DNA of 64,000 bases, taken from NCBI GenBank assembly GCA_036172245.1, contig JAYWIR010000133.1, positions 1-64,000 on the forward strand, read 5' to 3'. Origin of the DNA: Raillietiella orientalis (taxonomy: Eukaryota). Below the pieces are notes generated by a model, which was not told the DNA's origin, did no database searches, and saw only the letters and a list, made by a program, of their open reading frames with translations. Below are positions 1-37,316 of the stretch, piece after piece; within the stretch, counting starts at the first letter, position 1, and each line of letters begins with the position of its first letter. Position numbers and translations under genes: made by a program.

Positions 1-535
1 AGTCATGTGGACCACCACGGAGCGGTCCATAGATACTGGCAGGATCTTGCGGCCGTCTACGTTCAGCGGCGCATGGATAAGGCGGTGAGCCAAGGTGACA
101 TCTTTGCAGACCACCTCGACCCGCTGGCTGCCGCTGAGGACGGAGAGGCCGTCCAGATCCTTCTCTGTGACATTCGCGTCCTTCAACGCTTTGCTGAAGG
201 CGCGTGCTGTCCGGCCGTCGAACAAGCATCCTACCTGGTTGACAAGCGATGGCTGGTACCCGGAGGCCTTGTATGCGGCCATCTCCGCCATGGCTTCTGC
301 GCTGGGCGCGGCCACCATGGCGCTCCATGTCCTCGGCGTGGCCGGGGATGATTCCGGGGCGGCTGCCCCTGCTCCAGTAGGCTGTGGGGGCGAACTAGCC
401 TCCCCCACTCCCACCTCCATCGCGGTGTCCTCTGGCGTCGTGACCATTGGACACCGACGATGTACACAAAACACCACACAGAAGAAAAAGCGCTTTCCTA
501 CTACTCTTTGTGGAGTGAAGGAAAAACACGTCCTC
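1..535 (-). mobile_element. Non-LTR retrotransposon family M, 5' end and ORF1 N-terminus (copy M1, runs off the window)
   Basis: GGACGTGTT motif at 533-525 and ATG at 447 (MVTTPEDTAMEVG...). Roughly 90% similar by eye to 14123-14660. Confidence 0.85.
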
Positions 536-1976
536 CTACTGGCCGCGGAGGGGGCTGGCTGCAACGATGCAGCCAGCTCCTCCGCCGCACGCTCGAAGGC
601 GGCGTCGTCGATCACGGACTTGATGACGGACGCTTCCGCCGGTTCGCTCCCCACGCTGTTGACATTTTCAACAATGAGTTGCTCGTCGGCAGCAGCGATT
701 TCTACCTTGCGGCGTTCGGCGAAGACGCGTTCCACGACGACGCTCCATTCTTTTAAATTCTCGCTTACCTGCTGTTTCTTATTTTGGTAGGCGAGCTTTT
801 TTTCGATTCGTCGTTCTTTCTTAGTCTTTTTTTTCTTTTTCGCTGTGACTTCTTGCCATTCCAACACCTGACCGCTTTTGTCAATCTTTTCGGCATTCGT
901 TGCCGGGGTGTCGGCTGAGGCCTGGACCACGAGAGTCAGTGGCACAGCTTGAGCGGCAGCCTTCGCCGCCAGTTTTTTCTGAAGCAGCCGCGCGCGTTTT
1001 TTTAGTTCCTCGCGGAAAGCACGCGCACAGCGGATTGTGGACACACTTCCTTCGTGTGGCCCATTGTCTCCCATACAAGGCACTGTACGTTGGGGCACCT
1101 ACTTTTGAGGTGTCCCGACGTGTTGCAGAAGCCACAGTATTTGCGCTTCTCCACGTACCAGAGGTCGACGCTTTCTCCGCCGACCACCAGTTTGTGGGGA
1201 AGGGTAGAGCCCTCTTGAACGGTTACACGTGCAGCCGTGAAACCACACGGAACTGTGGTATAGTTTTCAAAAGGACTAGGCTTGGTCTATACTGCATGGA
1301 CCGTGCCTTCTTTTTTCAACGCAACGCGTAACTGTTCTTTCCGCATCCGCGCGTCAACTCCTGAAAGGTGTACCACCATACTGTGGTCGGCCGTAACGGG
1401 AAGGAGCCTGCGTGTCCCCATTACCTCGGGGGTTTTAAGAAGAATTCGGCCAGATCTGCATGTTCGCAGATCACCTCTACGTACTGCCCCCCGCTACGAA
1501 TGGTCATAGTGCAGAGCTCCTCTTCTTTAACATCGAGAGCGCGCATCCACCTTCGAAAAGGCGCGCGCACTCTCAGCAGAATACAAATTTCCTACCTTGT
1601 AGAATAGTGATGGTTTATACCCCTCTTCCACATAGGTAGATAATTCCGCCCCGGCTGCAGGCGATGGCGCCGACATGACGGCGCTCCACGCCCGCGCTGC
1701 AGCGGGGACCGGTTTTGTGGGGGCGGACGCCCCCACCTCCTTCGCCACTGTAGACGACGTTGCCGCCGGCCCCTGGCACTCCACCTTCTCTAGAGGCGAC
1801 GTTGCCGCCGCCACCTGGCACTCCATTTCTTCAGGAAGCGACGTTGCCACCTGCCCTTGACACGTACTGGTGGTCGCGTCAGGCATTGCTGCCTGATCGA
1901 CCACCACCACACACGAAGCCTACACCTAGGGACGGTTCCCGGCACGAGGAGCACCGAGGAAACACGTCCGCTCTAG
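536..1976 (-). mobile_element. Family P 5' end and frameshifted ORF1 (copy P1), gag-like with paired zinc knuckles
   Basis: ctagagcGGACGTGTT 5' end at 1976-1961, ATG at 1886 (MPDATT), CGFCNTSGHLKSRC knuckle near 1140-1095. Homologous to 5322-6038. Confidence 0.85.
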
Positions 1977-4088
1977 CCGACGTAAAGCTTTCGACTGCGA
2001 CGCCCAGAATCTCTTGCTGGAGCTTTTCGAACGCTTGTGCTTCTCTGCCTCATTATTGGCCTATCTGCGCTCTAGCTGGCGCGATTCGCAAATCAATGTA
2101 ACTTTCAGCGGGCATACTGTTCACGGCGTGCCGGTGCGACGTGGGATCCTTCAAGGAGACAGCCTGAGCCCCTTGCTCTTCAGTAAATACTTTGAGTTGG
2201 TACTGAGAGCGTACAGGGAAACTCTGGCGCACCTGCCGCATGAATGCACCGGAACGCCTGCGGTATCAGCATATACGGACGACTTCCTGCTGCTGCTCCC
2301 TATGTCCACCCTGGCTTCGGCGGTCGAGAAGTTCTTCGACCTGCTGAATCGAGGAACCGGGCTTACGGTGAACAGGGCGAAGTCGTCCGCGATACCAGTT
2401 GGAGCGGCGTGGGCAGGGCAGCAGGACTGGGTCCGTTTGGGGATCCCCAGGGTGAGGTACTTCAAGTACCTTCTTGTGCCGTTGGGGGACTACTCCTCGG
2501 CGGAAGCGTGGTCCTGCTGCCTTCAACAAGTAGAGACGGCGATAGACCCGTTCCGTGGCGGCAGGTTTTTCCTGCCAGAGCGGGCCGCGGCTTGGAACAC
2601 GTTCGCGGCTCCTCTCCTTCGCCTCCTGCTTTTTGTTTGCCCCCCAACAGAAAGGATTAAAAAGCGGACAAAGGACCTCCTCCGTATTGTCCTTTGGGGC
2701 AAAGGGAGGGCCCGAGTCCGCTTAAAGGACTTGTGCGCTCCTCGTCCGGACGGTGGTCCGGGCCTCCTGACGCTGGAGCGGCTGGTGCTTCAGCTCCAGT
2801 TCCGAATGTCGGCACTTGTTCGAGAGTTGTGGTGCACCTGTTGGTGCGTCCCTGCACGTCTCCTTCTCCAGCAAGCCACCGGCAAGATGGGACTGACGTC
2901 GTTTCTTGCACTCCGTCGCCGCGTTAACGGATGCGGACTTCATCTACGGAGGGTGGCTGCGCTGTCACGGAAAAACCCAGGATTGGTCACCTGTCGCCCT
3001 TTGAACGGTAGTGCCTGGTTGCAGGAAACCGTTCGAACGTGGGGACAGATGGGCATGCAACGCTCCCAACAGAAACGAAGGTTCCTGATTGGGGGTTACA
3101 GGAGTTGCACGCTCCGCGAGATCCTGGAGGATCCAAAGAAGAGAGCGTGGGCAGGAAGAATCCCCCTCGCTGCTGCGCTGCCCTCTCTGATGGAAGATCT
3201 GGATAGCGATGTTGCGGCGAAGTGGGAAGTTATAGTAACAATCTCCGGAAAGGAGAAGAAGATAAAAGAGTGGAAGGCGGGCCAGTTAAAAGGTGCTGCG
3301 ACCCCGAGTACGCCTCCCAATGGACTTCTACGCTGGAGCGCGCTGCTCGACTTTCCCATTGAACGTCTGAAGTGGCCCCCGGTACTAAGGAACACCTTCA
3401 CCCTCCCCTTAAAATGGCAGGAGTCGGCATTCCTGTTGCAGCACTGGGGGCTCCCCTGCAACGCCCGCCGACACCACTGGACCTGGGGAGCGGTGGACCC
3501 CAATTGGGTCAGGTGTGGGGAACGGGATTGCCTCCCGCACCTGCTAGTGGATTGTGTTACCCTTCGGCCCCTTTGGTTTCGCTTTGCCGCAACCATCGGA
3601 ATCCCCTGCGGCAACCCCTGGGACGTACTGAAAGCCCTCTTCGTTGCCGACGCCCTTTAGCAAGCGGCCTCGTTAGCAGCCCTGTGCTGCGTTCGCGGGT
3701 TCGTCGCCGCCTAGAGCAAGGCTACGGGAAGACCACACGACCAGGGTGCCATCCAGCCATCCTCCCAGGTCCTGAAGAGGGCGTCTTGATGACCCCACAT
3801 GGATAAAGGAATACAGAAGGAGCTTGTTGGCATCCTGAAAAGGATGCAAGGATCCCACCAGCAACTGTGATCCCTTCCCGTACCCTCCCAGTTTTTTCTT
3901 TTCTTTTGGTTTGCTTTTTTGTTTTTACCCCTTTCCCCTGCTGCCGTAGTGTACCGTATCGGTGTGCGAACCGGTGACCCTGCAGGGTCTGTGTTTCTTC
4001 GTGCGTGGCTGGAGCAATGGTCCAGCCACTGCACGTCTCTGTAAATGTTTATTTTAGAATAAACGCCCCGGCGAAATCCGGGTGAAAA
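1977..4088 (+). mobile_element. L1/Tx1-like element A: RT from the KAFD motif to the C-terminus, 3' UTR and 3' terminus
   Basis: RKAFD at 1981-1995, ILQGDSLSPLLF, YTDD, FKYL, and C-terminal CGERDCLPHLLVDC (ORF 2014-3660). T-rich UTR, then AATAAA (4058), a cccgg/ccggg hairpin and gaaaa. Confidence 0.9.
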
Positions 4089-5321
4089 TCGAATGCTTTG
4101 CGCAAGTCGACAGCTACCGCAGGGGATCCCTCTCCCCCCCGACCATCCCAACTCCCAGCGACGGACGCAAAGCAATTCCGGCTGCTCAATAAGCTCTTTT
4201 GCAACCGCCCCCTTGAAAAAGGGGACGGTTGTGAAGAAAATATCCTGGTGCTTTGCCCAGCCATACAACGGTTCCTGCCGCCAGGCTTCAAAGTTCGTTG
4301 GGCGGCAGGAGATCCATTTCTGGGCTGCCTGAAGCCGGTAAAGCGGTTTCAAAGGGAAACAAAAACTTGTCGTGGGGCGCACCTTAAGCGGACGCAGCGA
4401 CAGAAGTCCGTCGCTATCAGTGCAGCGCCGCAGGAGCAGGCGCGCAGGAGCGCACCACGGAGTGGACCAAAGGTTGGCGCACAGGGCCAACATCCGAAGC
4501 TGCACCTGCAGCTCGTTTCTCATCAGCGTCAGGATGCCTAAGTTAGCATCCCCACGCGGATCCGCCAAGCATTTCAGGCTGATCCTGGACCTCGCAGGAC
4601 CTAACACAGCGTTCCTAAACAGGCTGTGCGCCTGTAGCTTTGCCGAGTAGAAGGGCGAGCATTCAAAAGGCAGGAAGCTCGAGAGGGGGCAACGAAGGTG
4701 TACCATATCGCGGACCGCTCCGACAGGAGGAAGCTGCCATGCTAGAACGGGCTCAGCGCATTCGTAGCCTTCCGAAGGCAGTACGATCACACTTTCACTG
4801 GGCTGATGTTCCCCAGCGGAACGCCCAGATATCCGGTTGACAAAGCGGTCGGGATCCCTAGGCGGATCCAGTCGAACTGCCCCTCCCACGCCGCACAAAT
4901 AGGTACAACCAAGCTCTTGTTCCAGTTTACGCTCATGCCCGCTCCCCGGTAGATCAGCTCGCAGAAATCCTGGAGACTGGACGCCGGGGTGGTCATGGGT
5001 AAAACGAGAAGCAGGTCGTCAGCATAGGCCGCCACGGACGGCGTTCCTGGACAAAGGCTCGGCAGGTTGGCCAGCGTAAGCCTGTACGCCCTCAGCCCAA
5101 ACTCAAAGAAGATGCTGAAGAGCGACGGGATTAAACTGTCGCCTTGCCTGATGCCCCGCCGCACCGGCACGCCGTAGACGTGTCAGCCACTGAAAGAGAT
5201 GGAAATGAGCGTGTGGCGCCAACAAGCGCGCAAATAGGCTACGAGGTGCACCAGGAGACCGACGCGTTACAGAAGCTCCAAGAGGAGATCCTGATTTACG
5301 CAGACAAACGCCTAGTGCGCT
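4089..5321 (-). mobile_element. Decayed RT fragment B (KAFD-equivalent onward) plus a short upstream RT remnant ending in AVAVDLRKAFD (4089-4145)
   Basis: H*AFVCVNQDLLLELL from 5317, IRQGDSLIPSLF, AAYADDLLL, GYLGVPLG. ORF 4049-4291 shows PAVAVDLRKAFD. Confidence 0.85.
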
Positions 5322-6038
5322 CTAGGGCGGACGTGTTTTCTTGGTGGTCCTTGTGCCAGAAAGTCTGCCCAGTGCAAAAGCGTCGTGTGGTTCGGTGGTC
5401 GATCAGGCAGCGATGCCTGACGCGACCACCAGGGATGGCCAGGGGGCAGCGGCAACGCCTCCCCCAGAGGCAATGGAGAGCCAGGGGGCGGAGGTAACTT
5501 CGCCCTCAGAGGCGATGGAGGTGGGGGCATCCGCCCCCACAGAATCGGTCCCCGCTGCAGCGCGGGCGGGCTGCACTCTTCCCCACAAACTGGTGGTCGA
5601 AGGCGAAACCGTCGACCTCTGGTATGTGGGGAAGCCGAAATGCTGTGGCTTCTGCAATACGTCGGGCCACATCAATAAGAGGTGTCCCAATGTTCACTGC
5701 CAAGTATGCGGCACAATTACGCACACGAGGGAGATGTGCTCTAAAGCAGCAGTGCGGGTGCTTTTTAAGAGAAACCTCAAAAAACGCGCCCAGCTTCTAC
5801 AGAAAAGGCTGGCGGCGAAAGCTGCCGCGAAGGCTGTGCCAACCGCTCACAAGGCTCAGGCTGCATTCGATACCCCGGCGAACAACGCCGAAGAAGTCCA
5901 GGGAACTAGCCAGGAGCCTGTGTGACAGGTAACAACAGCCAAAACAACAAAAAAGGAAAGAAGATTAGAGAAAATGCTCGCGTACCGCCGGAAAAAACAA
6001 CAGGCAAACGAGCAAGTAAAAGAATGCAGCGTTGTCGT
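5322..6038 (+). mobile_element. Family P 5' end and ORF1 (copy P2, internally deleted near 5570)
   Basis: ctagggcGGACGTGTT at 5322-5337, ATG at 5413 (MPDATT), CGFCNTSGHINKRC and CQVCGTITHTREMC knuckles. Confidence 0.85.
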
Positions 6039-7345
6039 TTATTACCCGGTTGCGCCGGGACGTTTATTTTTAATATCCATTGGGAACTGTGTTCCCAGGC
6101 AAGGGGAACAGAAAATAGGGAGTAGTTTTCCCGGAACGCAGCCCGGGTACACTGAGAGTTCGGAACGGGAAAGGGTGGGACAATTAATAAATAAATTGGG
6201 TAGGAGGGCGGGGATAGGGGTATACAGTCTAACCGTTCCTGTTCTGAGAACCGGCGGTGAATGACGCCGATCTCCGTCCTTCTGCTCGCAGATGTGGCCA
6301 CCCGGCAGCCATTTGCAGGTTGCAGGCTGCGGTGTCGACGACCGATGTTTGGACTGTTCGCATCTACAATAAGTGGCAAGACCTGACAATGGCGCGGACG
6401 TAGCAAATGATGACGACGACTGCTCCAAGAGAAAGTCCGCCACGCGTGTAGAAGCGGCGCATACAATCGAGTGCGGTGTGTCCGAGGTGCAGGAGAGCTG
6501 AAGACAGCCGCTGCCACAGATCCTAGAGGGCATCGCACTCAAACAGCAAATCCGGGAGTGATTCCAACGCTACGCATTGGGCACAGTTCGGGGAAGCAGC
6601 TCCTTCGAAAATCAGGTGCTCTTGCTGGTTGCAGTACAAACTTCAATGTACCAGCAGAAAAGCGTCCTGTTTCCACCGAAGGGGGAAGGGACTCGCTTCC
6701 AAACACGCAGAAGGGACCACAAGTTCATCGGTGGGCACTTCGAGCAGCGCACTCCACCGGAGAAGTCCCTTGGCACGAAGGCGAGGTGTGGCAGCGTCTG
6801 CCACTTCGCAAGTCGGCCAGCCGCCCAGCAGTCGGGTTTCGCCTGCGATTTCGCAAGTGATCTCCCACCTCGCCTGCAGGTCACTGTCATCTCGCACCAT
6901 CAGTGCATACAGTGCCTCGGCGTTTGGCGTAGCGGCTAGGCGTTTCCACAGGTCCTGGTTTCCCAGCACCTCCCCTACTGGACAGTATGGGGAAAGTTTC
7001 ACGCAACGGAGTTCCATACGGGACACATCCTGTTGCGCTGCCCAGGACGATAAGGCTTCCTGTCTTCAGGCGCTGAAGTTCGTCGTCCGGCAGGAGATCC
7101 ACTCATGGTTTCCCAGAAGCGTGGCGAGCTGCTTCAAAGGGAAGCCGAATCCTATCTAGGCGCGCTCCGTGCGCAGATGCAACGAACGTAGTCCGTCGCC
7201 ACCCGTACAGCGCCGGAGCAGCAGCCGCGCTGGAGCACATCAGGGAGTAGTTCAGAGCTGCACACAAAGTGCCAGCATGCGGAACTGCACCAGCAGTCCG
7301 ATCCGCTCCAACGTCAGGATGCCCAATCCTGCATCCCCCCGAGGA
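6039..7345 (-). mobile_element. 3' part of an L1/Tx1-like element (ORF2 C-terminus, UTR, 3' terminus), probably the 3' end of element Z
   Basis: KGLLRWSALL...FPLRWKQDAFLLVH is homologous to 10950-11080. The minus strand ends AATAAAcgtcccggcgcaaccgggtaataa at 6068-6039. Confidence 0.8.
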
Positions 7346-7349
7346 GCCT

Positions 7350-10300
7350 CCAAGTCGACGCGAAGGAAGACGGCTGGATGCAGGTGAGAAAGTTCATTAG
7401 AAAGAAACCATCAAGGTCTTCGCAGCTCTATGTGAAGGTGAGTGGGCGAAAGAAACCCGCGAAACCTTCCCAGAAAAAGATTGCGATTCTTTCCTCCTGC
7501 GCAGTCGTCCTCTCGCGGTTGGAGCGGGAAGCTGCTGCTGCGGCTAAAAGGACGAAAGTCCCAGCCGCAGTTGCAGAAAGCGCTAGGAAACAGGCAGCGA
7601 ACGATTTCCTTAATTCCGGGAAACAGCAGCAGCGCCTGGCAAGCCCTTGACTGTCGGATTCTGATCCAGAGTCCGACAGAAAGAGCACACAGCGCGACAA
7701 CCGCCCGAAACCGCGCAATCGCCTCCCAAAGACCCGCAAGCGCGTGGTTGCCGGGGAGGAACTGCTGCTGGGCAGCAAAGAGGAGGAAAAGGACCTCACC
7801 TCTGAGCTACCGGCAACAAGCAGCGCGGCTTCGAATGAAGATGTCCAGTCTCCGAGATCGACCGCTCTGTTTCGTGACCACTCGCCGGACAAGGCGAGAA
7901 ATCTGTGCTCACCTTATCAGCCTTAATGCAGGAAGTCGCCTCTTTTCGTCGATTCAGCGTAGCCTGTTGGAACGTCAATGGGCTGCGCAGGGACGGAAAG
8001 AGGCGCGACGTGTCAGACACCCTGCGACATTTCGATTTGGCGATCCTTCAGGAGATGCATTACATCTCCGATGGGGAGGTTGCAGAAATCTAACAGCGCG
8101 CGGGTGGCATTCTGTACTGGCGAGAAGGTTCTGCACAATCGCGCGGAGTCGGTTTTCTCGCCAATAGTAGGATGGCGGGAGCGATGCCAGCGTTTGATTC
8201 GACCAGGAAGGGCGAATGGGCCAACTTGTACTCAGGTGGTCCGATTCAATCGACCTCGTCGTAACGAACGACTACGCGCCGAACGGCTTTCATTGCGTGT
8301 CGAAAGAATCGAGTTCTTCGACGTGCTGGAGAGCCAATGGCTCAGAAACTCCGAAGTCAGAGTGGCGCATCTCGTCGCAGGAGACTTCAACGTCCACCTT
8401 CTTTCCAACGAGACGCGGTCCCTGGCGGAACGGTCGCGGGTGGAAGAGGCATGCGCGTCGGTGCACGCGCCTAACTTGGAAGCCGGCGAGCCTGGACTGG
8501 AAAGGTGCGTGGATCACCTCTACCTCGATGAACACCTACTCTGGCGAGTGGGAAGGAGGGGCAGGGTGCCGTCCACGTTATGGGACCATGAGAGGCTGCA
8601 GTTCGAGCTACTCTTGATGGGCAAGGGACCTTCAAACAATGTTTGGAGGATGCCGGCGGATTGGCTGAGCCACCCGGAAGCGGCGGAGCATCTTCGCCAG
8701 TTCCTTCGCGGCTTTGCCATCCGGGAACTCGCAGACTGGGACCATCTTAAAAGATCGGTTCGCGAGTTTTGCAAACGGTTCCCCCTGCACCTGCTACCAC
8801 GCGGCTTCGGGGAAGGCGTGGCCAATAGCAGAGCATTTCTGCAGGCGCGCACCTTCTCGAGACGTGCGGAAGTCCGGCAACTCGCAGAGTACAAGGCGAG
8901 GGCCGAGCGCCAGGTCTGGCAGTCTGGAGCGGCTATTCTGCTCGACGACCAACGCCAGGAATGCACGGCTCCTGCCGAAGTGCGGCGAGCACTAAAGCGT
9001 CACTTCTCCATGCTCTACACTAATTCTTCGACGGAAAGAGTCCTCTCCGAACTACCTTTGCCGCGGGCTGCACATGGCATCGGCGAGGAGGAACGCGCTC
9101 GTCTCGACGAGCCCTTCACGTTGGAGGAAGTTTCTTGCGCCATCGCAGGACTCAAGAGACGGAAGACGCAAGTTGAGGACATACTGCCCGCGGAGTTCTA
9201 TCAGAGCTTCGCGGCGGAACTCGCCCCACTGGTTCTTAGAATCTCGACGCTGATGAGGGTGACGGGCGATGTCCCTTCTTCCTTCCGCTCAGCGACGGTG
9301 CGTCTTCTACCGAAAGGAGGGGATCTGCGCCAACTCAAGAACTGGCGTCCGATCACATTAGTGAATACGGACGTCAAGTTGTTTTCGAAGCTGTGGGTCA
9401 CGCGCTTAGGGAAAGTGGAGGAGTCCGTGGTAAGCCCGGAACAGTCTTACGCTGTACCGGGTAGATCCATGGATGCAAACCTTCTTTTCGCCCGCACCTG
9501 GTGGCAGCTTCAAGAGCGCGTTGCGGCGGTTACCCGAACAGCGGCAAGTCCTTCTGCCGACTGCATGCGCCAGTGCGGACGGACGGCAGAAAGGCCGGGA
9601 GCCTTGGCACTAGCAGTAGATTTGCACAAAGCATTCGACTGCGTAAACCAGGAACTCCTCTTGGAGCTCCTGGAGCGTCTTGGGCTTCCGAATCATCTTC
9701 TTCTGTACTTGCGCTCCTGCTGGCGCCACGCGATTATCAACTTGTATTTCAGTGGCTCCCGTGTGTACGGAGTGGCCGTGCGCAGAGGCATCAGACAGGG
9801 CGACAGCTTAAGCCCGTTGCTCTTCAGCATCTACTTTGAGTTGGTGCTAAAAGCGTACAGGCTGACGGTGGCCGTCCTGCCCAGCGCCTCTCCGTGCACT
9901 CCGTCCGCGGCAGCATACGCCGACGACCTTCTGCTTCTGTTGCCCATGTCTACTCCGCCGGACTCGGTCCAAGACTTCTTCGAGCTGATCCGTCGTGGAG
10001 CGGGCATGAGTGTTAACAGGGCGAAGTGCTCCGTCGTGCCGGTGGGTGCGTCGTGGGAGGGACGGGCCGACTGGATCCGCCTGGGGATCCCCACGGTCAG
10101 GTACTTCAAGTACCTTGGCGTACCGTTGGGTGATTTCTGCTCGTCTGAATCGTGGTCGGCCTGTCTTCAAAGGGCAGAGATGGCTCTAGGCCCGTTCCTG
10201 GAAGGCAAGTTCGTCTTGCCGGAAAGGGCGTGCATATGGAACACTTTCCCTACCCCCCTCTCCGCTTCTTATTTTTTGTTTGCCCGCCTCCCTATGTGGT

Positions 10301-11740
10301 TAAACTCCGGGCGCAGCGTCTCCTACGTAAAGTCTTGTGGGGCGCTGCGCGATCCAGGGTTCGCCTCAAAGATTTGGTGGCGCCATGCCAGGACGCAGGC
10401 CTGGGCATCCTGACCATCCAGAAGATTGGACTGCAAGTGCAGTTCCGGCTTCTATCCCTATGTGGGAAATTGTGGTATAGTCAATGGTGTGCTCGGGCTC
10501 GCCATATTCTCCAGCGATGTGTCGGCAGTGCAGGATTGCTTTCGTTGCTGCCGCGCAACCTTCGCCGGAGAACTGGATTTGGCTACCCACTGAGGCACTT
10601 GTCCTCGTTGCTGTTAGCCCATTCCTGGATTTCCTGCCGCCCCTCCAATTGGAATGCTTGGCAGCAGGAAGCTCTGGAGCACTGGACGTCCACTTTGGAT
10701 GTGCGCCCAGAGCCGCTGCGACCCTTACAGGGCCCTTTACGCAAACGGCTAGGAATGATGCTACAGGACTGGTCGCTTTGGTCCCGGATAGTCGTCTCAC
10801 CCATCGCCGCAGCGCTGTCTGCTCTCAGGGCAAACAACGACAGTAGCCAACCGGCAAGATGGGAGGTCTTCTGCAGCATTGCAGGAGTGAGAAGACTGCT
10901 AAACGGCTGCAGAACGAGCGTGTTGGTAGACGCTGCCACTCCTCGTTATCTGGCAAAGGGACTTCTTCGTTGGAGTGAGGTTCTTGGATTACTCCCCGAA
11001 GATCTCGTGGTCCCTTCCTTGTGTGTGGACAGCTCCGTGTTCCCGCTCCGATGGAAACAGGATGTTCTTTTTCTGCACTGAGGATTCCAGTGCAATAAGC
11101 GCAGTAACTTGGTTACAGGGGGAGTCGTCTACCCGAGGTTCCTCAGGTGCGAGGCGATAGAATCGCTTACGCACCTGCTCCTTGAGTGTAGTGACTTGCG
11201 GGAGTTATGGCGGAGACTTCCTTCGGCACTTCGTAGTCCTCAGGACACTGCCACAGACCTGCTTCGACGCTTCTTCAGCAAAGACGGACTGGATAAAGGC
11301 GCTGTTATCGCAACAATCTCTTGCATCCGCGCCATCGTGATTGCACGCCGTAAACTAGAAGGAAGCTCGCAGCGAACGGACGCCGCCAAAATAGCTGCGA
11401 ACTTTATGGAAGCAGCTGTCAGGTGGCCTCATCTGCCCAGAAAAGTCTCCAGGGAAGTCGCCATTGTCAAACACCGCTTCTAGAAAGATTAGGAACGTTT
11501 ACTACCAAGGATCCCTGAACCCAACCTCCACTGTTTTTTTTTTTTGTTTCTTTCCTTGTTTTGTTTATTCTGCATCCCTCTTCCTCCGTTCCTATCTTTT
11601 GGAAGGCACTCTGCGTGCCGGTGATCTCTCTGAACTGAGCTTACTGTATGGGCGTTTCTTGTGTCTCGAAAGGATAAATTTGCCTTCAAGATTGTGGTTC
11701 GCTTTAACAAAGAAACGTCCCGGCGCTACCGGTTTCAAAA
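7350..11740 (+). mobile_element. Element W: ORF1 tail, near full-length but disrupted ORF2 (APE endonuclease, RT, C-terminal Zn motif) and 3' end
   Basis: ORF2 ATG at 7926, ACWNVNGL, LQEMH, VAGDFN, DHERL, NWRPITLVNTDVKL, DLHKAFD (9619-9639), IRQGDSLSPLLF, YADD (9916), FKYLG, LRCEAIESLTHLLLEC. Stop at 8091 and several frameshifts. 3' hairpin at 11720-11732. Confidence 0.92.
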
Positions 11741-13910
11741 CTTTCGGAGATGCTATGTATCTCCTGCAGCAGCAACAGATCGAACGCGCGCAAAGCGTTG
11801 GCTACCGTCCGCCTTTTGTCAGCATCACGTGGCCCGTTGACATTCCAACAGGCCACGCTGACACGACGAGCGGACGCGAGTCCACGCATCACTGCTGCGG
11901 ACATGACGGCGTGCTCCTCGCCCCGTCCGGCGAGAAGTCAGCTGGTAGAAGAGCGGATTGGGAAGCGGAATCGCTCCCGTTCGCCGCCACATCGCGCCCA
12001 GCTGAGTCCTGGGAGCCGAGGATCATCGCCTCGGTCTCCGTGCAGGAGCCGGAACCGCCTCCGGCAACAGGCTCGTGCTTTCGCACTTTAGCCCGGCGCG
12101 CTGACGGCTTACCCCGGGAAGCGCGCTCCATTTGTTTGCACTCGGACTCCACCTCGGAGTCCGAGTGCCTGGCGCGAGACTGGCGTTTTGACAGTCCCTT
12201 TTTGTTTCGGCAGGTGGAGGCTTGCCCTGCCCGCGCGGGTGTCGTCGCAGTCGCCAACGCTGCTTCCAGAGCTTTGGCTTTAGTAGCCGCCCTCTCGCGC
12301 GAAGCGACGGAGACAGAGCACGCCGCCGTAGTGCGTACCTGGGTACGAACCTTCTTTGGAGTGCCTCTCTTCTGTCGCCCACCCACCTTTAGGATGGGGA
12401 ATATTGAAGGGTCAACCTTCTTCTTCCCCTTTGTGGGCGTCCCTGAGACGCGAGTCCAACCCGCGTCGGGGACGCAATCCTGGGAGGCCGACGCCTCCCT
12501 CAATTGTTTGGCCGGAGATGCCGGCTCACGTTTCGCGCTCGCGGCGGGAGACGGCTCCGTCCCCGTTACGCACTGCACCTGCTCCTTAGCCGATGCGGGC
12601 GAAACGGCGGTCATTGCCGTCGTCTTGCGAGGCGCTACTGCAGCCTTCGCTGCTCGTACCTTCGGCGTGGAAGACGCGATCTCCACCGCCGTAGGAGGAG
12701 ACTGCCGTTCAGAGGCAGCTCCGAGGGTACCCGCGCACGGTTTCCCGTGTGCTCCGCTGGACGCGCAAGCGGGCGCGGACGGTTCAGCAGCTTTGATTGA
12801 GTGCGTGCCCGCACTCTTTGGTTGCTTCGAAGGAAGCCATTTGCACCCAGGGCGACGTGGCATCTTTCCCGTCTACGCGGTTGTCTGGGATGGTGGCTTT
12901 CCTGAAGCAACCGCGCCCTTTTTCGCGGGACCGCCACTCGAAGATGCCCCGCTCTTCGCGCCCGATTTCTCCCGTGGCACAACGGGGGATCTTTTCGGCG
13001 CGGACGGGGTTGATTGTTGGCGGGTTTTCGCCTGCCGCTTTCTCTTCAGCTCGGCGCACTCTTTGATGGAGTGGCCGAGCTGTTTACAATAGCGGCAGTT
13101 GCGTGAAGAGCACGTCCACGGACGGTGGCCCTCGGCACCGCAAATGCCGCAAGCCGGTCGCTGACCGGCAAATTTAAGGTGAACGATCGCATCGCCCACC
13201 TGCAAGTGCGAAGGCATTTGCCTCCTATCCGCCATGGTGACACGCGCCATTGCAAGTCCGCTGTGGAGAGATGCAATCCTTTTGATCGGATTTTCTGCTC
13301 TCCACAGCGCGTGCACCGTGGCGAATGCACTAAGTGCAGCGACGAGCACGCGATGGGGTGTGTCCACCTGGACGGCGGATAATCGGACCACGAACGACTG
13401 GTCCATGGCCGACGGGACGACCTCCTTCCCGCGGATATTTAGCGGGGTGCGGAGAAGGCGCTGGACTAGGGATGCATCTTTGCAGTGCACCTCCCAGTGT
13501 CCGAGCGCGTTAACCGGCATGACGGCCAGGAGGTCATCCTGTCGGACCCCGACGAGCAAAAGCTCGTCCCACAAATTTTCTCCGACCCCGTCGGAGATCG
13601 CAGCACTCACCGGATAGCAGAGCGCAGGCTTGTAGCCATGGGCTGCATATGCCTGCAGCTCCGCTTCGTCGGGCGGTGCTCCGTTGGCTGCCGCCGCCTT
13701 GACGACGGCGGAGAAGCTTCTCGCTGGTGGCGAGACACAAGAATCAGAGGCGGACCGGACATCTGGAGTAGAGTCTCCACTGCCAGTAGCAGCCTCCACA
13801 TTCATCTTTTGCTGCAGGGCTCCGTGGACATCCCAGTAAACGCACTTGGGCACACCATACACAAGAAGACGGAGAGGAATCACGCTCGAGGAGCAACACA
13901 GAACACGTCC
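11741..13910 (-). mobile_element. Family Z 5' half: 5' UTR, ORF1 (13805-11889, one frameshift near 12870) and start of the ORF2 APE domain
   Basis: GGACGTGTT at 13910-13902, knuckles CGICGAEGHRPWTC and CRYCKQLGHSIKEC, ORF2 MRGLASARRVSVACWNVNG...LLQEIH. Confidence 0.9.
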
Positions 13911-14122
13911 GTGCACCCTTGTCGTCGAGCCTATTCCCGAACGCTGCGAAAAAGAACTCGCCGCTACCGACGACCTCCCCTTTGTTGACTCTGTCAACTG
14001 CAAGGGGAGAAAACCGGCGGCGGCGTCCGTCATCGACACCACCATCGATGACGTAGCCTTCGCGCGACCCGCGGAGGAGCTGGCTGCATCGTTGCAGCCA
14101 GAACACTCCACGGCCAGTTCGA
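13911..14122 (+). mobile_element. Remnant of family P ORF1 (downstream part), lying between the 5' ends of Z and M2
   Basis: CTLVVE...IDDVAFARPAEELAASLQP aligns with WSVVVE...IDDAAFERAAEELAASLQP at 747-540 (minus). Confidence 0.8.
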
Positions 14123-16142
14123 GGACGTGTTTTTCCTTCACTCTCCAAAGATTAGTAGGAAAGCGCTTTCTTGTGTGTGTTGTTTTGTGTAACTCGTCGG
14201 TGTCCAATGGCCACGACGCCAGAGGACACCGCGATGGAGGTGGGAGTGGGGGAGGCTAGTTCGCCCCCACAGCCTACTGGAGCAGGGGCAGCCGCCCCGG
14301 AATCATCCCCGGCCACGCCGAGGACATGGAGCCCCATGGTGGCCGCGCCCAGCGCGGAAGCCAAGGCGGAGATGGCCGCATACAAGGCCTCCGGGTACAA
14401 GCCATCGCTTGTCTACCAGGTAGCCAACTTGTTCGACGGCCGGACAGCGCGCGCCTTCAGCAAAGCGTTGAAGGACGCGAATGTTAATGAGAAGGAGCTG
14501 GACGGCCTCCATGTCCTCAGCGGCGGGCACCGGGTCGAGGTGGTCTGCAAAGATGTCACCTTGGCTCACCGCCTAATCCATGCGCCGCCGAACGTAGACG
14601 GCCGCAAGATCCTGCCAGTATCAATAAACCGCTCCGTGGTGGTCCACATGACTGGCATCACCAGCCGCATGACGCGGTCAGCGGTTGGTGAGGAATTACG
14701 GAAGTACGGTGAGGTGCACGCACTGTGGCTGAAACCCTCCATTTTCGACGGCTTCGATAGCCTTTTTGGTGGGCAGGCTGCAGCGCGGGTCACCGTAAGG
14801 GAGAATTGTGGGCTTCCCCACAAACTACAGGTGGCGCAAGAAAACGTCGACCTTTGGTATGTAGGAAAGCCCTAATATTGCGGGCATTGTGATAACGTGG
14901 GACACCTACGTAAAAGGTGTCCCAACATACAATGCCATTTGTGCGGGGAGCGGGGCCACGTTCGGCGCGTGTGCCCCAAACGCCCCACCCCGGTTCCCCC
15001 TGCCGCGACAAAAGCGCAAGGGAAACGCGCTTCAAAGGTCTCTAGACCTAAAGTAGAAAAGGGCCAGCACAAGCTGCCAACACCTCAACCTCCGGCGCGT
15101 AAGCCGGAGGAAAAACCTTCCGAAACGGTGGAAGGCGAAGAGGGATGGCAGCTTGTAGAGGCCAGAAAGCCAAGGAAACTCCCACCTGCGGAGAGCAAAG
15201 AGCGCAAGACGGCCGGTAAGCCGAAGAAACCCGGTCCGCGCTCGAAAACTCTGCGCGAGTGCACGGTGGCACTAAAACGCATCGTCGTTCCCGAGGTTGC
15301 CACCCGGAGCGACGATCGTTCCCTTGCCGTTTCCGCCGCGCCCGAGGCTCGCGACGGCGAACGCTCTGTTTACTAAGAGGGTGAGCCGCGCGACACGCCG
15401 CTCGAAGCCGCGGACGCCGCGTTCACACAGGCGGCGGAGGAGCTCACGGTCACGCTGGCCGAGCGTGAGAACCCTTCGCGCAAGGCCGTGCAAAGGCCGG
15501 CTGCTGCAAAGAAGGCCCCCACAGGTGAGTTATACCTGGGGGCCGAAAGTACATCCTCTTCCTCGGAGGCACCCACCAGGAAGTCGCGACGCAAGTCCCA
15601 GAAGCCCAGAAGGCGCCTCCCCTCCACCAGCGAGGAGGAGAAGGAAGCCGTCGGAAGCGTGGGAAGTTCGGAGGGGGAATTCCCACGCTCGGAAGCCGTC
15701 GATCCAGCCAACCCCATGGAGGAGGGTGAAAAGGGGGGTGGAGTCCCCCCTGCAAGCGCCGACCCTGAACAGCCCGCCCACATGGAGGAGGGCGAACAGG
15801 TAGGCGCGACAGCACCTGTGGGTGACCCGCTCGACACGCCGTTACCTATGGAGGAGGGGGACCAGGTGCCTTCAGCACCTGACCCTCCTACTCCACCTAG
15901 CGTCTCGCCCCAGCAGGTGGCGGACGCCGCATTGCCATCTTCCCAGGAGTAACACCTGGGCTCGCCAGTCGCCGTCGGATTCGCGCGGCCTGTTGGAATG
16001 TCAACGGGCTGCGCGACGATGGTAACAGGCGAGATACAGCCGACACCCTGCGGGAGTTCGACCTGGCGCTGTTGCAGGAGATCCACGTGATCATTGCGGC
16101 AGACGTTCAGGAGATCGAAACGATCGCTGGGGGTCAGCTGTT
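14123..16142 (+). mobile_element. Family M copy M2: 5' UTR, ORF1 (14207-15952, one stop and one frameshift) and start of the ORF2 APE domain
   Basis: GGACGTGTT at 14123, MATTPEDT, knuckles CGHCDNVGHLRKRC and CHLCGERGHVRRVC, then RIRAACWNVNGL...LLQEIH. Confidence 0.9.
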
Positions 16143-18169: not shown

Positions 18170-21060
18170 TCAGCAAAGCATCTCCGCGCGCTTCTGCGAG
18201 AATTCCAATTACGGAAGCTCTCTGACTGGGACGCAATGAAGAGCTCAGTCCGAGAGTTCCCGACCTCTTCTTCCTGAACCATCGTCCTCCGTGTTTTTGC
18301 GAGGGACTGAGAAGTTTGTGGGCTTACTTACAGATCCATCTCTACTCCGGGAATGCCGACCTCCTTCGACTGGCGGCAGTAATTGCCAGGGCCGAAAGGC
18401 AGACTGAGCATTCCGGGTCGACCAGCTTATCGCACGCCCATGGCTGAGAATTCTCTGCCCCAGCTCTGGTAAATCGCATCTTGCGTGTTTTTTTACTCTT
18501 CACTTTACACGAGAGCAAGACCCGAGTGAGCCTTTGCTCGGCGATTGCTACCAGATGGCGCCTCAGCGTTGAAGGATAAGATTAGGAACCATCTCCAGAA
18601 GCCTTTCTCGATGGCGAAGATCATCTCCGCCATCGGAAAGCTGAAAAAACGAAAAACACCAAGGGAAGACAGGCTGTCCGCGGAGTTTTACCAGTGCATC
18701 GCGGCAATGCTGGTCACCCTGTTCTCAAACTAGGCATGCTGATCCGCGAACGAGGGGACGTTCCCGACTCGTGAATCTAGGCTAGAGTACGTCTCCTCCC
18801 GAAAAGGCGAGACTTACGCAACGTAGGCAACTGGCGGCCCATCACTCTTCCGAATGAGAACGCAAAGTTGCTTGCCAATTTGTGGAATGAGCGACTTGGA
18901 CGGGTGGCGGAATCCGTGGTCAGTCCGAAACACAATTACGCGGTTCGCACGAACTATGGTGCCAGTTGCGATCGCGCGAAGGTCACACAGGTCAAGAGGA
19001 TCCCGAATTTCTGTTTACCAAGGAGGGGAAGGCCAAGGAGGAGGAGCCCTTGCAGTTGCGGCCGATTTGCGTAAAGTATTTCTCTGCGTCGACCAGGAAC
19101 TTATTCTGGAACTCCTGGTACGCATGGGATTTCCGGCCGTCTTTCAGGCCTATGTGAGCTTTTGCTGACGCCACGCGCTCATAAGTATTTGTTTCAGCAG
19201 CCAACACGTGTGCTGCGCGCCGGATCGGCATACTATAAGGCAGGGTTGCAGGCTGAGCCGCCCGCACTCCAGCAACTCCACTGAGTTGGTGCAGAGAGCA
19301 TCCAGGGAGACTCTGGTAACTCTGGCGAGCTCGCGCCCCGAAATGCCTGCCGTTAAGCCCGTTCCGAAGAGCTTAAGCAGCTGCTCCCCGGGTGGACTCC
19401 GGCGTGGGCGCTCCAATGCTCTCTGTAGCTGCCACGGAGGTGGACGGCCCTCGAGGTGAACAGGGAGAAGTCTTCCATCGTAGCAGTCGGTGCGGCGTTG
19501 GCCGGAAAGACGGACTGGATACGCTCGAAGATCTTCACGGGCATGTTTCTGATGTAACTTGGCGCTCCGCTGGGGGAAATCTGCGGAACAGAAGACTCGT
19601 CCGACTGTCTTCGAAAGGTGGAGTTGGCGATTGATCCGTTCTGGATGGCACGTTTCACTTGCAGCAACGGGCCGCGAGGTGAACTACGATTGCAAACTCA
19701 TTCCATTGCCCATCATTTTTTGTTTCTCCACCCCCACTGTAATAAACATGCAAATCGAGAATCTCTTGAGGAAAGCCCTGTGGCGCACAGCGAGGAACGG
19801 TATCCGTTCCTCGCTGTGCGTTTTACCCAGGGACGGGGGATAAGGCCTCCTCACTGTGTATCACATGGAACGACAGAAATACATTTAAAAACTCGCACTT
19901 GCGGTGGAGTTGCGGACTTCGCCACGGTGCGAACCCGCAAGACCACTCGCGAGCGAAAGGCAGCGAAGGATTGCCTTCGATCGCCGGTGCATACGAAAGC
20001 AGCCTGGGCTATTGCGGCCATCAGCTGCACCACACGGCTGCTCTCATGAAAAACAACACGTCAATCTACTGCCCCCACGCGAACTGTACTGTCTGGCTTT
20101 AGGAGCAAGGATGCTCATGGGAAAAAATCGAAGGCTCGAGCGAGGTGGAATCCGCCTGCACCCGACAAGGAACCTCACACTGGATAGCCCCTGCAGTGGA
20201 TGGTAAACAACTCACGCAAATTGCCTTGGCCCTCCTTCATCCCCCAAGTTCCTCCAAAACGCTGCAGACAGAAACGAACGAGCATCGTGAAAAGTGTCCT
20301 GTCTCATTGGAGACAGAAAAAAACGAATGAAGGCGTGGAAAACTCGGCAGGTAATGGGCGCTACGACCACAAGTGTTGCGCCTAAAGAGCTCATCACCAG
20401 GGTCGACCTGCTCGCAACACAACCAGAGGAGGTGGAGTGACCCCGGCATATTGGAACAGCGGGACACTTACAATGCAGTGGCAACAGACGGCGTTTCTAT
20501 TCTTCCTGCATCGCGGAATGCTATGCAGAGCGCTCCTCCCCACAGGACTGTGGGGAGTTTGCTTGCAAGTTGTGCAGAGAGCGGTGAAAGGGAAACCTTC
20601 CCGCATTTCGTATTGCACTGCGTCGCCATCCGTAATCTTTCCTATCGACTCTTGTCGATTCTGAAACTTCCGGCAGGCGACCCTAAAACCAATAGACGGC
20701 ACCTCTGCTGATGTGATCCACTGACCCTGCCGCGTCTCTGGCAGTTTTATGCAGTGTTCGCGCTAAAGTGACACGGTAGAACGCCAAAAGAAGAAAGAAA
20801 AACAGCAGGGATGCCATGCACTGGACAACGATCTTTTTCGATAAGGTATCAAAATGACCCAACCGGAGAAATTCCAACGCAACACTTGTAGGCATCCTGA
20901 AGAGGATGGAGGGGTGCGAACAGGACGAACCGAGGTTCATTCTGATCCAGCTCTATCCCTATAAACAGCGCCTTCTCCCCGATTCCGATTTTCTTAAGTT
21001 AATCTTTGTTTTGTTTAACCCTACATTATGGGTGCTCGAGAGAACCCCACCGGTTTCAGA
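18170..21060 (+). mobile_element. Heavily decayed ORF2 of the same L1/Tx1-like lineage
   Basis: KRKTPREDRLSAEFYQ, GNWRPITL, ALAVAADLRKVFLCVDQELILELL, WQQTAFLFLH, CAESGERETFPHFVLHC, with many frameshifts. Confidence 0.8.
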
Positions 21061-22054: not shown

Positions 22055-23560
22055 CATGCAACATCGTTACTCATAAAATTTCCAGGTGACGGAGAAAACC
22101 AAGCAAACAAAAAGAGGAAAAAAAAAAGGACACGAAAAAAAAAACGTCCATCCTCCAATGGAAGCAACACAGAAGGAGTGCATCCCTCCCTGCTGAGAGG
22201 AATAGGACAGCTTCAAGGTCGACCAGAAAGGCGGTGGCCTTCATTTGGAACGCTCGTGTCTGTCCTGCAACCAACCCTGTAACCACCCCGAAGACCAGTT
22301 TCCGCACACGCCGCTCTCAAGAAGCAATCTATCCCACACAAAACGTTCGGTAGAGAACATCCCTCATGTACTCTCCATGTCCCCGAATCCACGTTCAAGA
22401 AAGCAATGTTTCAAAGGTCGCTATCCTCAAAAAGTTGTACCCTTGCGCTAAGGGCTGCAACGGATATGATTTCCATGCAACTTCGTTACTCATAAAATTT
22501 CCAGGTCGCGGAAAAAGCCAAGCAAGAAGGAAGAGGAGAGAAAAAAAAAGGACACGAAAAAAAAAAACGTCCATCCTCCAATGGAAGCAGCACAGACAGA
22601 GTGCATCCCTCCCTGCTGAGAGGAAAAGGAAGGCATCCCGGTCGACCAGGTAGGCGGTTGCCCTCATTTGGAACGCTCGTGTCTGTCCTGCAACCATCCC
22701 TCTAACCATCCCGACCACCGGTTTCCGCACACGCCGCTCTCAAGGAGCAATCCAACCACCCACGAAACGTTCCGTAAAGAACATCCCTCATGCACTCTCC
22801 ATGTCTCCGTATCCACGTTGAAGAAAGCAATGATTCAACGGTCGCAATCCTCAAAAAGTTGTTCCCTTGCGCTAAGGGCTGCAACGGATATGCTTTCCAT
22901 GCAACTTTGTTACTCATGAAATTTCCAGGTAGCGGAGAAAGCCAAGCAAGAAGGAAGAGGAGACAAAAAAGAAGGGACACAAAAAAAAAAAACGTCCATC
23001 CTCCAATAGAAGTAGCACAGACAGAGTGCATCCCTCCTTGCTGACAGGCAAAATAAGGCTTCCCGGTGGACCAGGTAGGCGGTTGCCCTCATTTGGAACG
23101 CTCGTGTCTGTCCTGCAACCATCCCTGTAAGCACCCCGACCACCGGTTTCCGCAGACGCCGCTCTCAAGGAGCAATCCATCCACCCACGAAACGTTCGGT
23201 AGAGAACATCCCTTATGTGCTCTCCATGTCCCCGAATGCACGTTGAAGAAAGCAATGTTTCAACGGTCGCTATCCTGAAAGAGTTGTATTCTTGCGCTAA
23301 GAGCTGCAACGGGCATGTTTTCCATGCAGCTTCGGTGCTCATAAAATTTCCAGGTAGCGGATTAAGCCAAGCAAGAAGTCAGAGGAGACAAAAAAGAAGG
23401 GACACAAAGAAAAAAAACGTCCATCCTCCAATGGAGGCAGCAGATGCAGAGTGTATCCATCCCTGCTGAGAGCAAAAGGTCAGCTTCCCGTTCTCCGAGG
23501 TAGGCTTCTGCCTTGAGTTGGAATTTACGTGTCAATGCCCGGTCCATCCAGTTAATCCAT
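22055..23560. repeat. Tandem array, ~423 bp unit, ~3.5 copies
   Basis: catgcaac..gttactcataaaatttccagg recurs at 22055, 22474, 22898 and 23323 (periods 419, 424, 425). Confidence 0.92.
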
Positions 23561-24529
23561 ACTTCGAGCCACCCTTCCAACGGCTTACTATTCCTTCACT
23601 CTCTCCAGGAGCAATCCTTCTCCTGCAAATTGTTCCAAAATGAATATCCCCATGTTTCTCCCATCTCCCCGTGTCCTCATTGAAGTTGGGAATTTCTTTC
23701 CGGTCGATATCCAAGGAAATATGTGTTTGTGTGGATTTGTGTGTGGTCACCGAGGCATGGCCGTCCCTGTTGGTCGCAAATCCCCATTTTTGTCTGTTTT
23801 TTTTTATAGGGGATCGAAAGTCCCGAAGGTTATTCCAACCTGTGGACAGCAACGCGATTTTTGGGTTTTCTATAGGTTGTGAATGTTGGTTTGGAAGAAT
23901 TGCATTTTGTTCAAGAGTTAAGTCTGCAACTCTGTTCTGAAGCTCGTGTCGTCCCCGAGTGACCGTCGTTGTAGGCCAAAAAGGTGGTAATGGCAATTTT
24001 TATGCACAAAAATAATTTAAATGCAATCCCTCAATGTAAAAAAATGGAAAAGAAAAAAAAGAGAAAACAAAAAAAAGAAACGCAAAAAAAAAAGAAAGCA
24101 AAAGAAAAAAAGGGAAAGATAAAACGTAAAATAGATTCGAAAATAAAAAGTAGGAAATATAGATCCTCATATTTTATTGAATACTTTGTTTCCTGGGGAA
24201 TGAACCCCGAATTTTGGACCACCATTTGCTTCCATTGGATGGCGCAGTGCTTTCGCTTCCACGGCACTCGCAATTGGAGTGCGGAGAGACGAAACCGACC
24301 ACCGGACATCGCAGATCTTCCCGCTTCCCTCTAGTAGAGAATGGCTCCTCTCTTTCTGCTGGCCCGAACCCTTTTTTGAAAACTATTCGCTCTTCTTCTT
24401 GGCATCCCACAACGATCCATCCTCCCCGTTCACTGGCAACGATTTTCGGATGGAAATCCATAGGGTTCCTGTAGCTTGAATTTTCCCATGAAGAGTCGCC
24501 TCAGTTCACCAACTGACTTTCACATGTAC

Positions 24530-27230: not shown

Positions 27231-27469
27231 TGGTTTGGTTTCTCGCGTCAGTACACTCTACTCCCTGGAACTGAAATCCGTTCCTTCTGGATGCCTGACA
27301 TTGAAATGGTTGTACCGCTACGGGCAATTGTTCCCTTTGGTGGAGGTGCTCTAAGGATATTTCCCATGGTGTGCTCAGGTCGACGGGTGTCCGCTCTCCA
27401 GAGGCCATCAGTCTGGTCGACCACCTTCTCTTTTAAGGAATGGCGATCGTTGTGGGTGCCTGTCTTCCT

Positions 27470-31200: not shown

Positions 31201-31621
31201 ATTGTGTACCTTTGTGTTTGTAATCGATGTACTTGATCTTGTATAGTGGGAGGATTTTCGTACGTCGGTGGGCTCCTTTCTCATGGTTGTTGGACTTTTT
31301 GCGTTGAGCACTGCGTCTGGAGGTTTGCACGGGAGCTAGTGACAAATGTTGGATTGGTTTTAGGAGACGTATCGTGGAGGGTATTGCTGTTTGGAAGCAT
31401 CCCTGGAGGTGAGCGGTTGGTGTTCAGCTTGCTTCTTTACCGAGGATTGCTTGTTTTGCTTTTGGAAGTGACCTCTCCAGTGTTTCCTCCGCGGTTGTCC
31501 ATCTGTTTGAGAGGAAGCACCGCTGCGTGCTTTTTGCTTACGTAATGTTGCAACCCTTTGGTGTGTGTGTGTGTGTGTTTTGGTTTCCTACGCTTTTGAA
31601 AGTGTCGAGGTCAGGATCACC
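28260..31621 (+). repeat. Dispersed ~3.4 kb direct repeat, copy 1
   Basis: Collinear with 49695-53120. The ORF track shows near-identical translations (30242 vs 51737, 30824 vs 52322). Both copies end just after a (GT)n tract. Confidence 0.92.
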
Positions 31622-32449
31622 TTGCGTACTTTTGAAGTGGTTTTTGAATAGTCGGTGTAAAATTGGCGGAATGTGAGGGTTAGGTGTTTCGTATTGTATT
31701 TGGTCTCTTCATTTTGGGATGCATCAGGATACAAGAGGTTGCGGTGTGGGGATTCCTGTTGCAACACGTACACGTAAGACACCAAGAAGAAGAATGCAGA
31801 AGTATCCCTCTCACTCCACGCTTGCAGAGGGATGTCGCCGCGACAGCGGATGCCGGAGGAAGCACCGCAGCGAATGCGGAGATTCACTCGTTCGTTAGCC
31901 CACGGCCAAAAGTCTGCAATCCAGAACAAGGCTTTTCTGTGCGTCCCTGAGGCTGCCGCGGTGGGGTCTTGCTGTCGTTTGGTTACGTCCCTTTTCTCCA
32001 GGTCCAGTGATGTGGGCGGGCGATGCATGGTAGATCTCAGCGGAGCAGTAGATGCGGCTATTCCTTCCATTTGAAAGGGAGGGTGCGGTCGTTTAGGTGC
32101 GCTGGAGGCCACTGGAGATGTTTACGGAGAATCTGCCAGCAGCTCAGTACACACAAAAGTTGTTTCGAACGGACACTCCTGTTGGTAGCGTCTGCAAGGT
32201 AGTCCGCGTTCCAACCATGGCTAAATGTTTGGTGGTCTAAATGTTTCCTCCTGGAATGATCTCTCAGAAGACTGAGAGATCCCATTTTGATGCCAGTGTG
32301 CTCCTTCGAGGAGGACAGCACCGCGGCGGGGAAACTTCTTTCTACCCGCACGCTCATTCCGGCTTCCCGAATTCTGAATTCGGCTCCTGTGCATGCTACA
32401 TGGGAATGGGATTTGAGATGGAGAGGATCTGTAAGGTGAATGCGCGCTT

Positions 32450-34275: not shown

Positions 34276-34469
34276 TGAGTGAGTTTTGTAATGTTTTACA
34301 TAGTACGATGATTGTTTTCTATGTGATTTGTTTGAGAGTTTGTATTTATGGAATGGATTTATTGAAAGTGGAGTTGAATACTATTTTATTCGAATAGTAA
34401 AGTTTCTTAGAAGGGAGTGATTAGAAATTGGAAGTTCTTTATTTAAGAAGTTAAGTGTGTTGATAGCTA

Positions 34470-36990: not shown

Positions 36991-37005
36991 AAGGTACTAG
37001 TAGAG

Positions 37006-37285: not shown

Positions 37286-37316
37286 GTAGTTAGGATAATG
37301 ATGCTTTTGAATTGAT

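Follow-up and report, generated by a model that had tools for sequence, protein, structure and literature searches.

The first 64,000 nucleotides (nt) of contig JAYWIR010000133.1 of Raillietiella orientalis (assembly GCA_036172245.1, forward strand; hereafter the window) begin with a nest of related long interspersed nuclear elements (LINEs) lying inside one another. Three of the junctions in this nest fall on the same codons of the resident element, those for the sequence DL(R/H)KAFD in motif A of the reverse transcriptase (RT), and at all three the insert is antisense to its host (3/3). We favour, with a confidence that stops a little short of even, the reading that the cluster is one of self-nesting LINEs, with the codons of motif A as a preferred and orientation-fixed landing site. 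Three junctions make such a preference plausible; a single window cannot prove it. A stricter version, in which one LINE lineage homes antisense to the motif-A codons (which include that of a catalytic aspartate) in the RT of its relatives, possibly of its own family, is doubtful.

The nest extends from base 1 to ~16,440. It has 55-62% G+C, is made up almost wholly of related non-LTR (long terminal repeat) retrotransposon pieces in alternating orientation, and holds at least ten pieces of related GC-rich LINEs. The map combines tblastn with the window's own open reading frames (ORFs), self-blastn, and junctions read directly. From ~16,550 onwards the sequence is lower in GC and has no match to nest elements with the queries used in the tblastn map. 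The window as a whole is eukaryotic and rich in repeats; Rfam has no match anywhere in it.

The nest elements are non-LTR retrotransposons with a CCHC-bearing ORF1 and an ORF2 that encodes a putative apurinic/apyrimidinic (AP)-type endonuclease and an RT. RVT_1 (PF00078) is found in three pieces, called F (E 4.5e-23), A (E 1.2e-07) and B (E 1.6e-07). Exo_endo_phos matches below the Pfam cut-off at the N-terminus of element H2 (E 0.0027, profile positions 3-43) and in F (E 0.0074, profile positions 118-205), where the copy is frameshifted. ORF1 gives a weak zinc-knuckle match, with CCHC spacings visible in the translations; zf-RVT is found in neither A nor F at E 0.01. The hallmarks of LINEs are present, namely a common 3' terminus, variable 5' truncation and a short target duplication, with no LTRs. 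The 3' motif AAACGYCCCGGCG, followed by a short stem and an A run, is common to four copies (A, D, F and E), and in the tblastn map F, E, I, J and K are 5'-truncated at differing points. The closest named proteins are hypothetical proteins of skink and catfish, 28-34% identical; an Atlas cluster named TX1 (score 0.88) is a lead only for membership of the Tx1 clade.

The first junction joins H3 to A. H3 (P1 with the downstream Q1; 1-1976, minus strand) is the 5' part of a full-length LINE, placed by tblastn and by direct reading of its junction; it has two ORF1-like regions in tandem and leaves the window at the left edge. Its 5' motif CGGACGTGTT is at 1961-1970 on the minus strand and its terminal CTAG at 1973-1976. 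On the plus strand CTAG is followed by CCGA (1977-1980), a 4-nt spacer between the H3 terminus and the host, and then by CGT AAA GCT TTC GAC, the RKAFD codons of A (1981-1995). A itself (1981-4088, plus strand) is identified by RVT_1 and tblastn, and consists of the RT from RKAFD to the end of ORF2, a 3' untranslated region (UTR) and a natural 3' terminus carrying the motif CCGGGTGAAAA (4061-4073). The second junction joins H2 to B. The first part of H2 (P2; 5322-6038, plus strand) starts with CTAG at 5322-5325, and the 4 nt before it (5318-5321) adjoin the reverse complement of CAC TAG GCG TTT GTC (5303-5317), the decayed H*AFV codons of B. From these codons B (~4150-5317, minus strand) runs to the middle of ORF2; it is 3'-truncated, contains stops, and is 86% identical to a fragment, K, at 63537-63967. 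The spacing and the reading frame of the two 5' junctions are identical, and the spacing of CTAG plus 4 nt to the R/HKAFD codons recorded in the first-pass annotation is confirmed.

At the third junction A is the insert. It ends at base 4088, and 4089-4111 carries, reverse-complemented, the codons for VDLRKAF(D) from a third RT. About 55 nt of this RT remain (C; 4089 to ~4145, minus strand), ending AVAVDLRKAF(D), a motif peptide identical to that of a public relative, P0001; the boundary between C and B is approximate. The two 5' junctions are thus at the R/H codon and the 3' junction is after TTCGA, with 14 nt between them. All three positions, and the antisense orientation of the inserts that had been claimed for them, can be read directly from the sequence. 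The claim that unoccupied sites exist also holds: an intact VDLHKAFD site is present in F (9616-9639), and an intact ADLRKVFL site (19061-19084, plus strand) in G, a more distant LINE with ~40% amino-acid identity. The sites of P0001 and of a second relative, P0014, are intact as well, both reading AVDLRKAFD.

The P-type 5' terminus has the motif CTAGRGCGGACGTG, and both 5' junctions read CTAG(R)GCGGACGTG. CTAG is most likely part of the 5' end of the inserts, to judge by the internal paralogous copy of the 5' region in Q, which retains TAGGAGGACGTG. That it belongs to the host is less likely, as C and G have no CTAG upstream of the motif; F, however, has CTAG 11 nt upstream of its H codon. 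The reading frame of A is open for 576 codons (1930-3660, plus strand) and crosses the junction into the antisense of the P1 5' end. In host B this antisense stretch is read in that frame too, with PRKHVR in A and B alike.

The resemblance between the two 5' junctions raises the question of whether they are copies of one event. A single blastn alignment crosses both (1689-2447 against 5568-4851, 66.6%), and the spacing from CTAG through 4 nt to the codon is equal in both, as would be expected if one ancient composite of an RT 3' half and a P 5' end had been duplicated as DNA and then decayed. Rates of non-synonymous (dN) and synonymous (dS) change, calculated by the Nei-Gojobori method with our own script, speak against this. 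Hosts A and B are different proteins, as had been proposed, with 58% amino-acid and 64% nucleotide identity over 131 codons; dS is 1.25 and dN 0.34, a ratio of 0.27. The ratio is 0.17 for A and F (212 codons) and 0.23 for F and B. The inserts P1 and P2 have a dS of 0.61 and a ratio of 0.29 in the CCHC region (62 codons), and a dS of 0.07 and a ratio of 0.90 in the downstream ORF1 (162 codons). The latter value bounds decay since insertion at ~7%, which is small compared with the A-B and P1-P2 distances. Dead duplicates would diverge neutrally and equally, whereas purifying selection has acted on hosts and inserts alike as they diverged, dS is high or saturated, and the amounts are unequal; the 5' junctions are therefore separate events. 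A and B (64-67%) are also no closer than A and F (66-68%), F being a copy with an intact site, and K shares 86% identity with B. The 4-nt spacers (1977-1980 and 5318-5321) match at none of four positions, in flanks that align at 66.6%. Both partners of both 5' junctions thus come from separately evolving, active lineages, and the two junctions are independent. The claim that they are not one duplicated junction stands, and the ancient composite, for which we see hardly any chance, is largely refuted.

H3 (1-1976) and H2 (5322-6038 and 13919-15376) each have two tandem ORF1-like units, and a copy of the 5'-end motif GGACGTGTT precedes every unit. When H3 is compared with H2, identity is 66-77% in the upstream unit (dS 0.61) and 92-100% in the downstream one (dS 0.07). 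The rise in identity, from ~70% to >92%, is gradual, which suggests a mosaic produced by recombination between lineages or by gene conversion. This gradual climb, with no step at the insertion point of H1 (described below), rejects the notion of P and Q as separate elements joined at position 738. About 477 nt of P1 are missing from P2. A 42-nt tandem repeat of 2-2.6 copies is found in the 5' region of both P-type elements (1755-1863 and 5438-5520).

The insertion of H1 into H2 is the complete antisense case in the nest. H1 is in two parts on the minus strand. The 3' part (D; 6039-7356) comprises the ORF2 C-terminus, the 3' UTR and a natural 3' terminus at 6039 that adjoins H2 in antisense; the 5' part (R; 11741-13916) comprises a natural 5' terminus at 13916, an ORF1 with two CCHC knuckles, a linker and the start of the endonuclease. 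H1 is flanked by a 7-bp target duplication, TTGTCGT, which ends the first part of H2 (6032-6038) and begins the second (13919-13925). The homologous stretch of H3 (~738-745) is uninterrupted. The second part of H2 (P3; 13919-16140, plus strand) continues with ORF1, a linker and the endonuclease N-terminus, where it is cut by E. This complete case shows that the growth of the nest came from elements inserting into each other by ordinary target priming.

Two further events fall in the endonuclease N-terminus. F (~7357-11740, plus strand; 5' boundary approximate) is a 5'-truncated copy whose open RT frame spans 816 codons; the 3' terminus of F, at 11740, adjoins the endonuclease N-terminus of H1 in antisense. 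E (16141 to ~16440, minus strand; right boundary approximate) is a short 5'-truncated 3' piece, and its 3' terminus adjoins H2 in antisense. The sites of F in H1 and of E in H2 are ~13 codons apart, which rules out insertion at the same endonuclease nucleotide. In all, positions can be given for six nested events: KAFD has three, the endonuclease N-terminus two, and the 5' region one, that of H1 in H2. All six are antisense (p 0.016, post hoc). Outside the GC-rich nest, at 59940-60000 (plus strand), there is a further 3' terminus of this type, AAACGTCCCGGCA ... CCGGGTGGCA; it adjoins the C-terminal part of the endonuclease of a G-like element in the same orientation, making one sense-oriented pair.

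If the motif-A codons are a preferred site, new copies would enter resident copies by target-primed reverse transcription. A nick in the sense strand of the resident would start reverse transcription, so that every insert would come to lie antisense. The DL(R/H)KAFD codons would be the favoured landing site among several. For A, reverse transcription would have started in host C, from a nick following TTCGA, and H3 and H2, full-length elements of another lineage, would have had their 5' ends joined at the R/H codon of hosts A and B. Each KAFD insertion would split the RT of its host at the active site. We infer for the KAFD events that each is a complete insertion with a duplication of 14-18 nt, and that the site is chosen by the endonuclease or by the ribonucleoprotein (RNP).

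Several points weigh against this reading, beginning with numbers. The KAFD junctions are three and all in one locus, and three of the six nested events lie elsewhere, so that the preference is not exclusive. In 2,000,000 uniform simulations with a 6.5-kb element, 0.06% had at least three of six events inside 20 nt; with the 5' junctions merged into a single event, two of five came that close in 6%. These figures are post hoc, as the locus was singled out for this very coincidence. The four 3' junctions have no clear common motif, reading TCGA^C, TCGT^C, AAAG^ and GCTG^ on the host sense strand. TCGAC occurs ten times in sense and twice in antisense in F, and three times against once in A; a short nick preference for this sequence could explain part of both the recurrence and the antisense bias. 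The first-pass annotation had one family recognising the motif, and this is not supported: elements with the same type of 3' terminus have also landed at three other places, and A, known here by its 3' junction, may be of a different lineage from H2 and H3, known by their 5' junctions.

These observations lead to an alternative to which we give a low but real probability: a weak nick preference for TCGA or TCGT before C, at sites enriched on the sense strand, combined with chance and post hoc selection of the locus. Two of the four 3' junctions are of this form, the sense enrichment of TCGAC would also account for the antisense bias, half of the events are not at KAFD, and the window was picked for the coincidence. 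With 5-10 such sites per element, three events on the same one would occur in ~1-4% of cases by our own estimate. A short hot spot also fits poorly with two 5' junctions that coincide to the nucleotide and in frame, and the 3' junctions after AAAG and GCTG are outside the motif.

The halves of hosts that a preferred site would leave behind are a further difficulty. No KAFD event in the window has both ends or a target duplication. The overlap of ~14 nt between 5' and 3' junction positions, which had been read as the trace of a duplication, is compatible with one; the duplication itself is not seen. The sole measured duplication is 7 bp, as against the 14-18 nt implied by the offsets of the KAFD junctions. 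The upstream half of A would fall to the left of the window. That of B is not in the window; it is expected after H2, but E cuts H2 at 16140 and the lower-GC sequence comes next from ~16,550, so that an extra deletion is needed. C amounts to ~55 nt joined directly onto the truncated B, for which another deletion has to be assumed, and ~2.3 kb of H1 were lost at the entry of F.

It is rather improbable, and somewhat more so than a short hot spot, that A and B were never whole at this locus and that the 5' junctions arose by a two-RNA event resembling twin priming, or by a template jump. The complementary DNA (cDNA) of an RT-bearing RNA would have ended at the KAFD codons, where the RNA was cut or structured, and would have been joined to a full P-type cDNA primed from the other strand of the break, with a few untemplated bases between. 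L1 twin priming draws both pieces from a single RNA, with variable breakpoints. The nest shares with it the head-to-head arrangement, in which an inverted 5' piece adjoins an internal point of a sense 3' piece, and this likeness in geometry speaks for such an event; the nest differs in having a recurring breakpoint and pieces that belong to separate lineages. At both junctions the 4 unrelated bases look like untemplated additions, the window shows no upstream half of A or B, and H2 and B are 3'-truncated within the nest. A small hairpin is possible at the site (z score -1.9 in F and -2.1 in C), but it is weak and is absent in G (z +0.49). Twin priming from a single RNA is unlikely, as A and B differ at a dS of 1.25 and the attached ORF1 pieces at 0.07; the pieces do not come from one RNA by this comparison, with which the two-RNA form is compatible. 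The same stop would be required in two lineages, and the natural 3' terminus of A on the KAFD codons of C, which is what a normal target-primed start gives, would be left unexplained.

False joins between repeats are a further alternative, and one that we consider very improbable. The region is repetitive, and the contigs of sequencing run X1 are short, only 7 of 549 aligning at >=99%. The joins link unrelated sequences at natural termini rather than shared repeats or self-complementary fold-backs, and the target duplication of H1 in H2 is clean. X1 contains 8% of the sampled words; its 549 contigs were aligned at 80% likeness and 349 of them are <90% alike, which is consistent with related elements in the X1 sample. 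None of the X1 contigs among those listed bridges a KAFD junction; they neither confirm nor refute the junctions, and this too counts against the favoured reading. An X1 joint from 1966 to 2161 has a shorter side of only 27 letters and is not relied on, and joints between opposite strands in X1 were rejected as cross-mapping between paralogous pieces. To an account other than those described here we leave a small chance.

The family is almost absent from the public data searched. A first protein search gave 13 proteins at E <= 0.001, with one relative, P0001, at 61% identity. An exhaustive search of representatives gave 722 matches, and the relatives among the 150 listed are P0001 and P0014; a search among shorter proteins gave a single match, P0014. 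A metagenome scan with the RT alignment found 58 loci, with a best segment of <=42% identity and most <36%, and none of them alike at the DNA level. A scan of genome contigs with the P 5'-end pattern gave seven matches in bacterial or archaeal metagenome-assembled genomes; these have no further likeness and are taken as chance. Apart from P0001 and P0014, with their intact sites, these collections yielded no member of the family and no other copy bearing a junction. The full-text literature searches that were run listed no paper on a LINE that targets the RT coding motif of a second LINE, and none on a recurrent break or stop in LINE RNA at active-site codons.

The rest of the window contains other repeats and one possible organelle-derived sequence. 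A 425-bp tandem repeat of 3.4 copies is at 22055-23505, and a second array, with long direct repeats 88-92% alike, at 24528-27278. A 2.8-kb direct duplicate (28822-31644 and 50325-53142) is 96% identical, and an inverted pair from another LINE family (37432-38787 and 55719-57092) is 92% identical. The region 34000-42000 is AT-rich with a strong G-over-C skew of 0.32-0.54. At 46340-47305 (plus strand) a fragment possibly derived from cytochrome b may represent mitochondrial DNA copied into the nucleus. It matches Cytochrome_B (E 7.6e-05) and Cytochrom_B_C (E 0.0022), both below the Pfam cut-off; 24 codons change under the invertebrate mitochondrial code, and a protein search with the fragment gave no match.

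LINEs that land in other mobile elements are already described. Passages of one source report that Tx1 inserts into the piggyBac-type Tx1D, that the crocodilian Tx1-Mar and Tx1-9_AMi insert into Mariner-N4_AMi and Harbinger respectively, and that Tx1-8_Crp and Tx1-4_AMi insert into groups of LTR retrotransposons (PMC4494074). As in the nest, where the endonuclease is putative, an endonuclease-bearing LINE inserts at a set point of another mobile element, a target that is present in many copies and harmless to hit (PMC4494074). The targets in the main-text passages of that source are DNA transposons or LTR elements, with no LINE RT coding motif among them (PMC4494074), and the preference in the nest, compared with these families, amounts to just three of six events in one window. 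Zepp and ZeppL, L1-type LINEs of green algae, form nested GC-rich clusters by insertion into existing copies, according to parts of two sources (PMC8226300; PMC3446292). They resemble the nest in building GC-rich self-nesting islands that stand out from the surrounding genome. Zepp, in the same partial accounts, forms tandem arrays mostly of 3' ends, whereas the nest has alternating orientation and a recurring coding motif; the two are likened by description only. The weak cytochrome b-like fragment, tentatively judged to be of animal type from its motifs and from matches below the Pfam cut-off, speaks against a green alga. The rDNA- and repeat-specific LINEs such as R1, R2 and TRAS/SART share with the nest the habit of inserting precisely, and in one orientation, into a multicopy sequence that is conserved. 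They target host genes or telomeric repeats with near-absolute specificity; in the nest the target would be the coding sequence of related retrotransposons and the specificity is partial.

If run-off and end joining made the 5' junctions, what the locus preserves would be a break or stop that recurs in LINE RNA at active-site codons. If instead the motif-A codons are a preferred landing site, a target within the most constrained coding motif of a rival polymerase would be a new strategy, even though LINEs landing in mobile elements are known. Such a target would be multicopy, renewed by the activity of its victims, harmless to the host organism and unable to mutate without loss of function. 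An endonuclease or RNP with a defined, conserved DNA target would exist in nature. Such a target would also provide a mechanism for the growth of islands made only of retrotransposons. On the stricter reading of a homing lineage, the element would be a hyperparasitic retrotransposon, one that disables its competitors as it spreads and builds self-nesting clusters.

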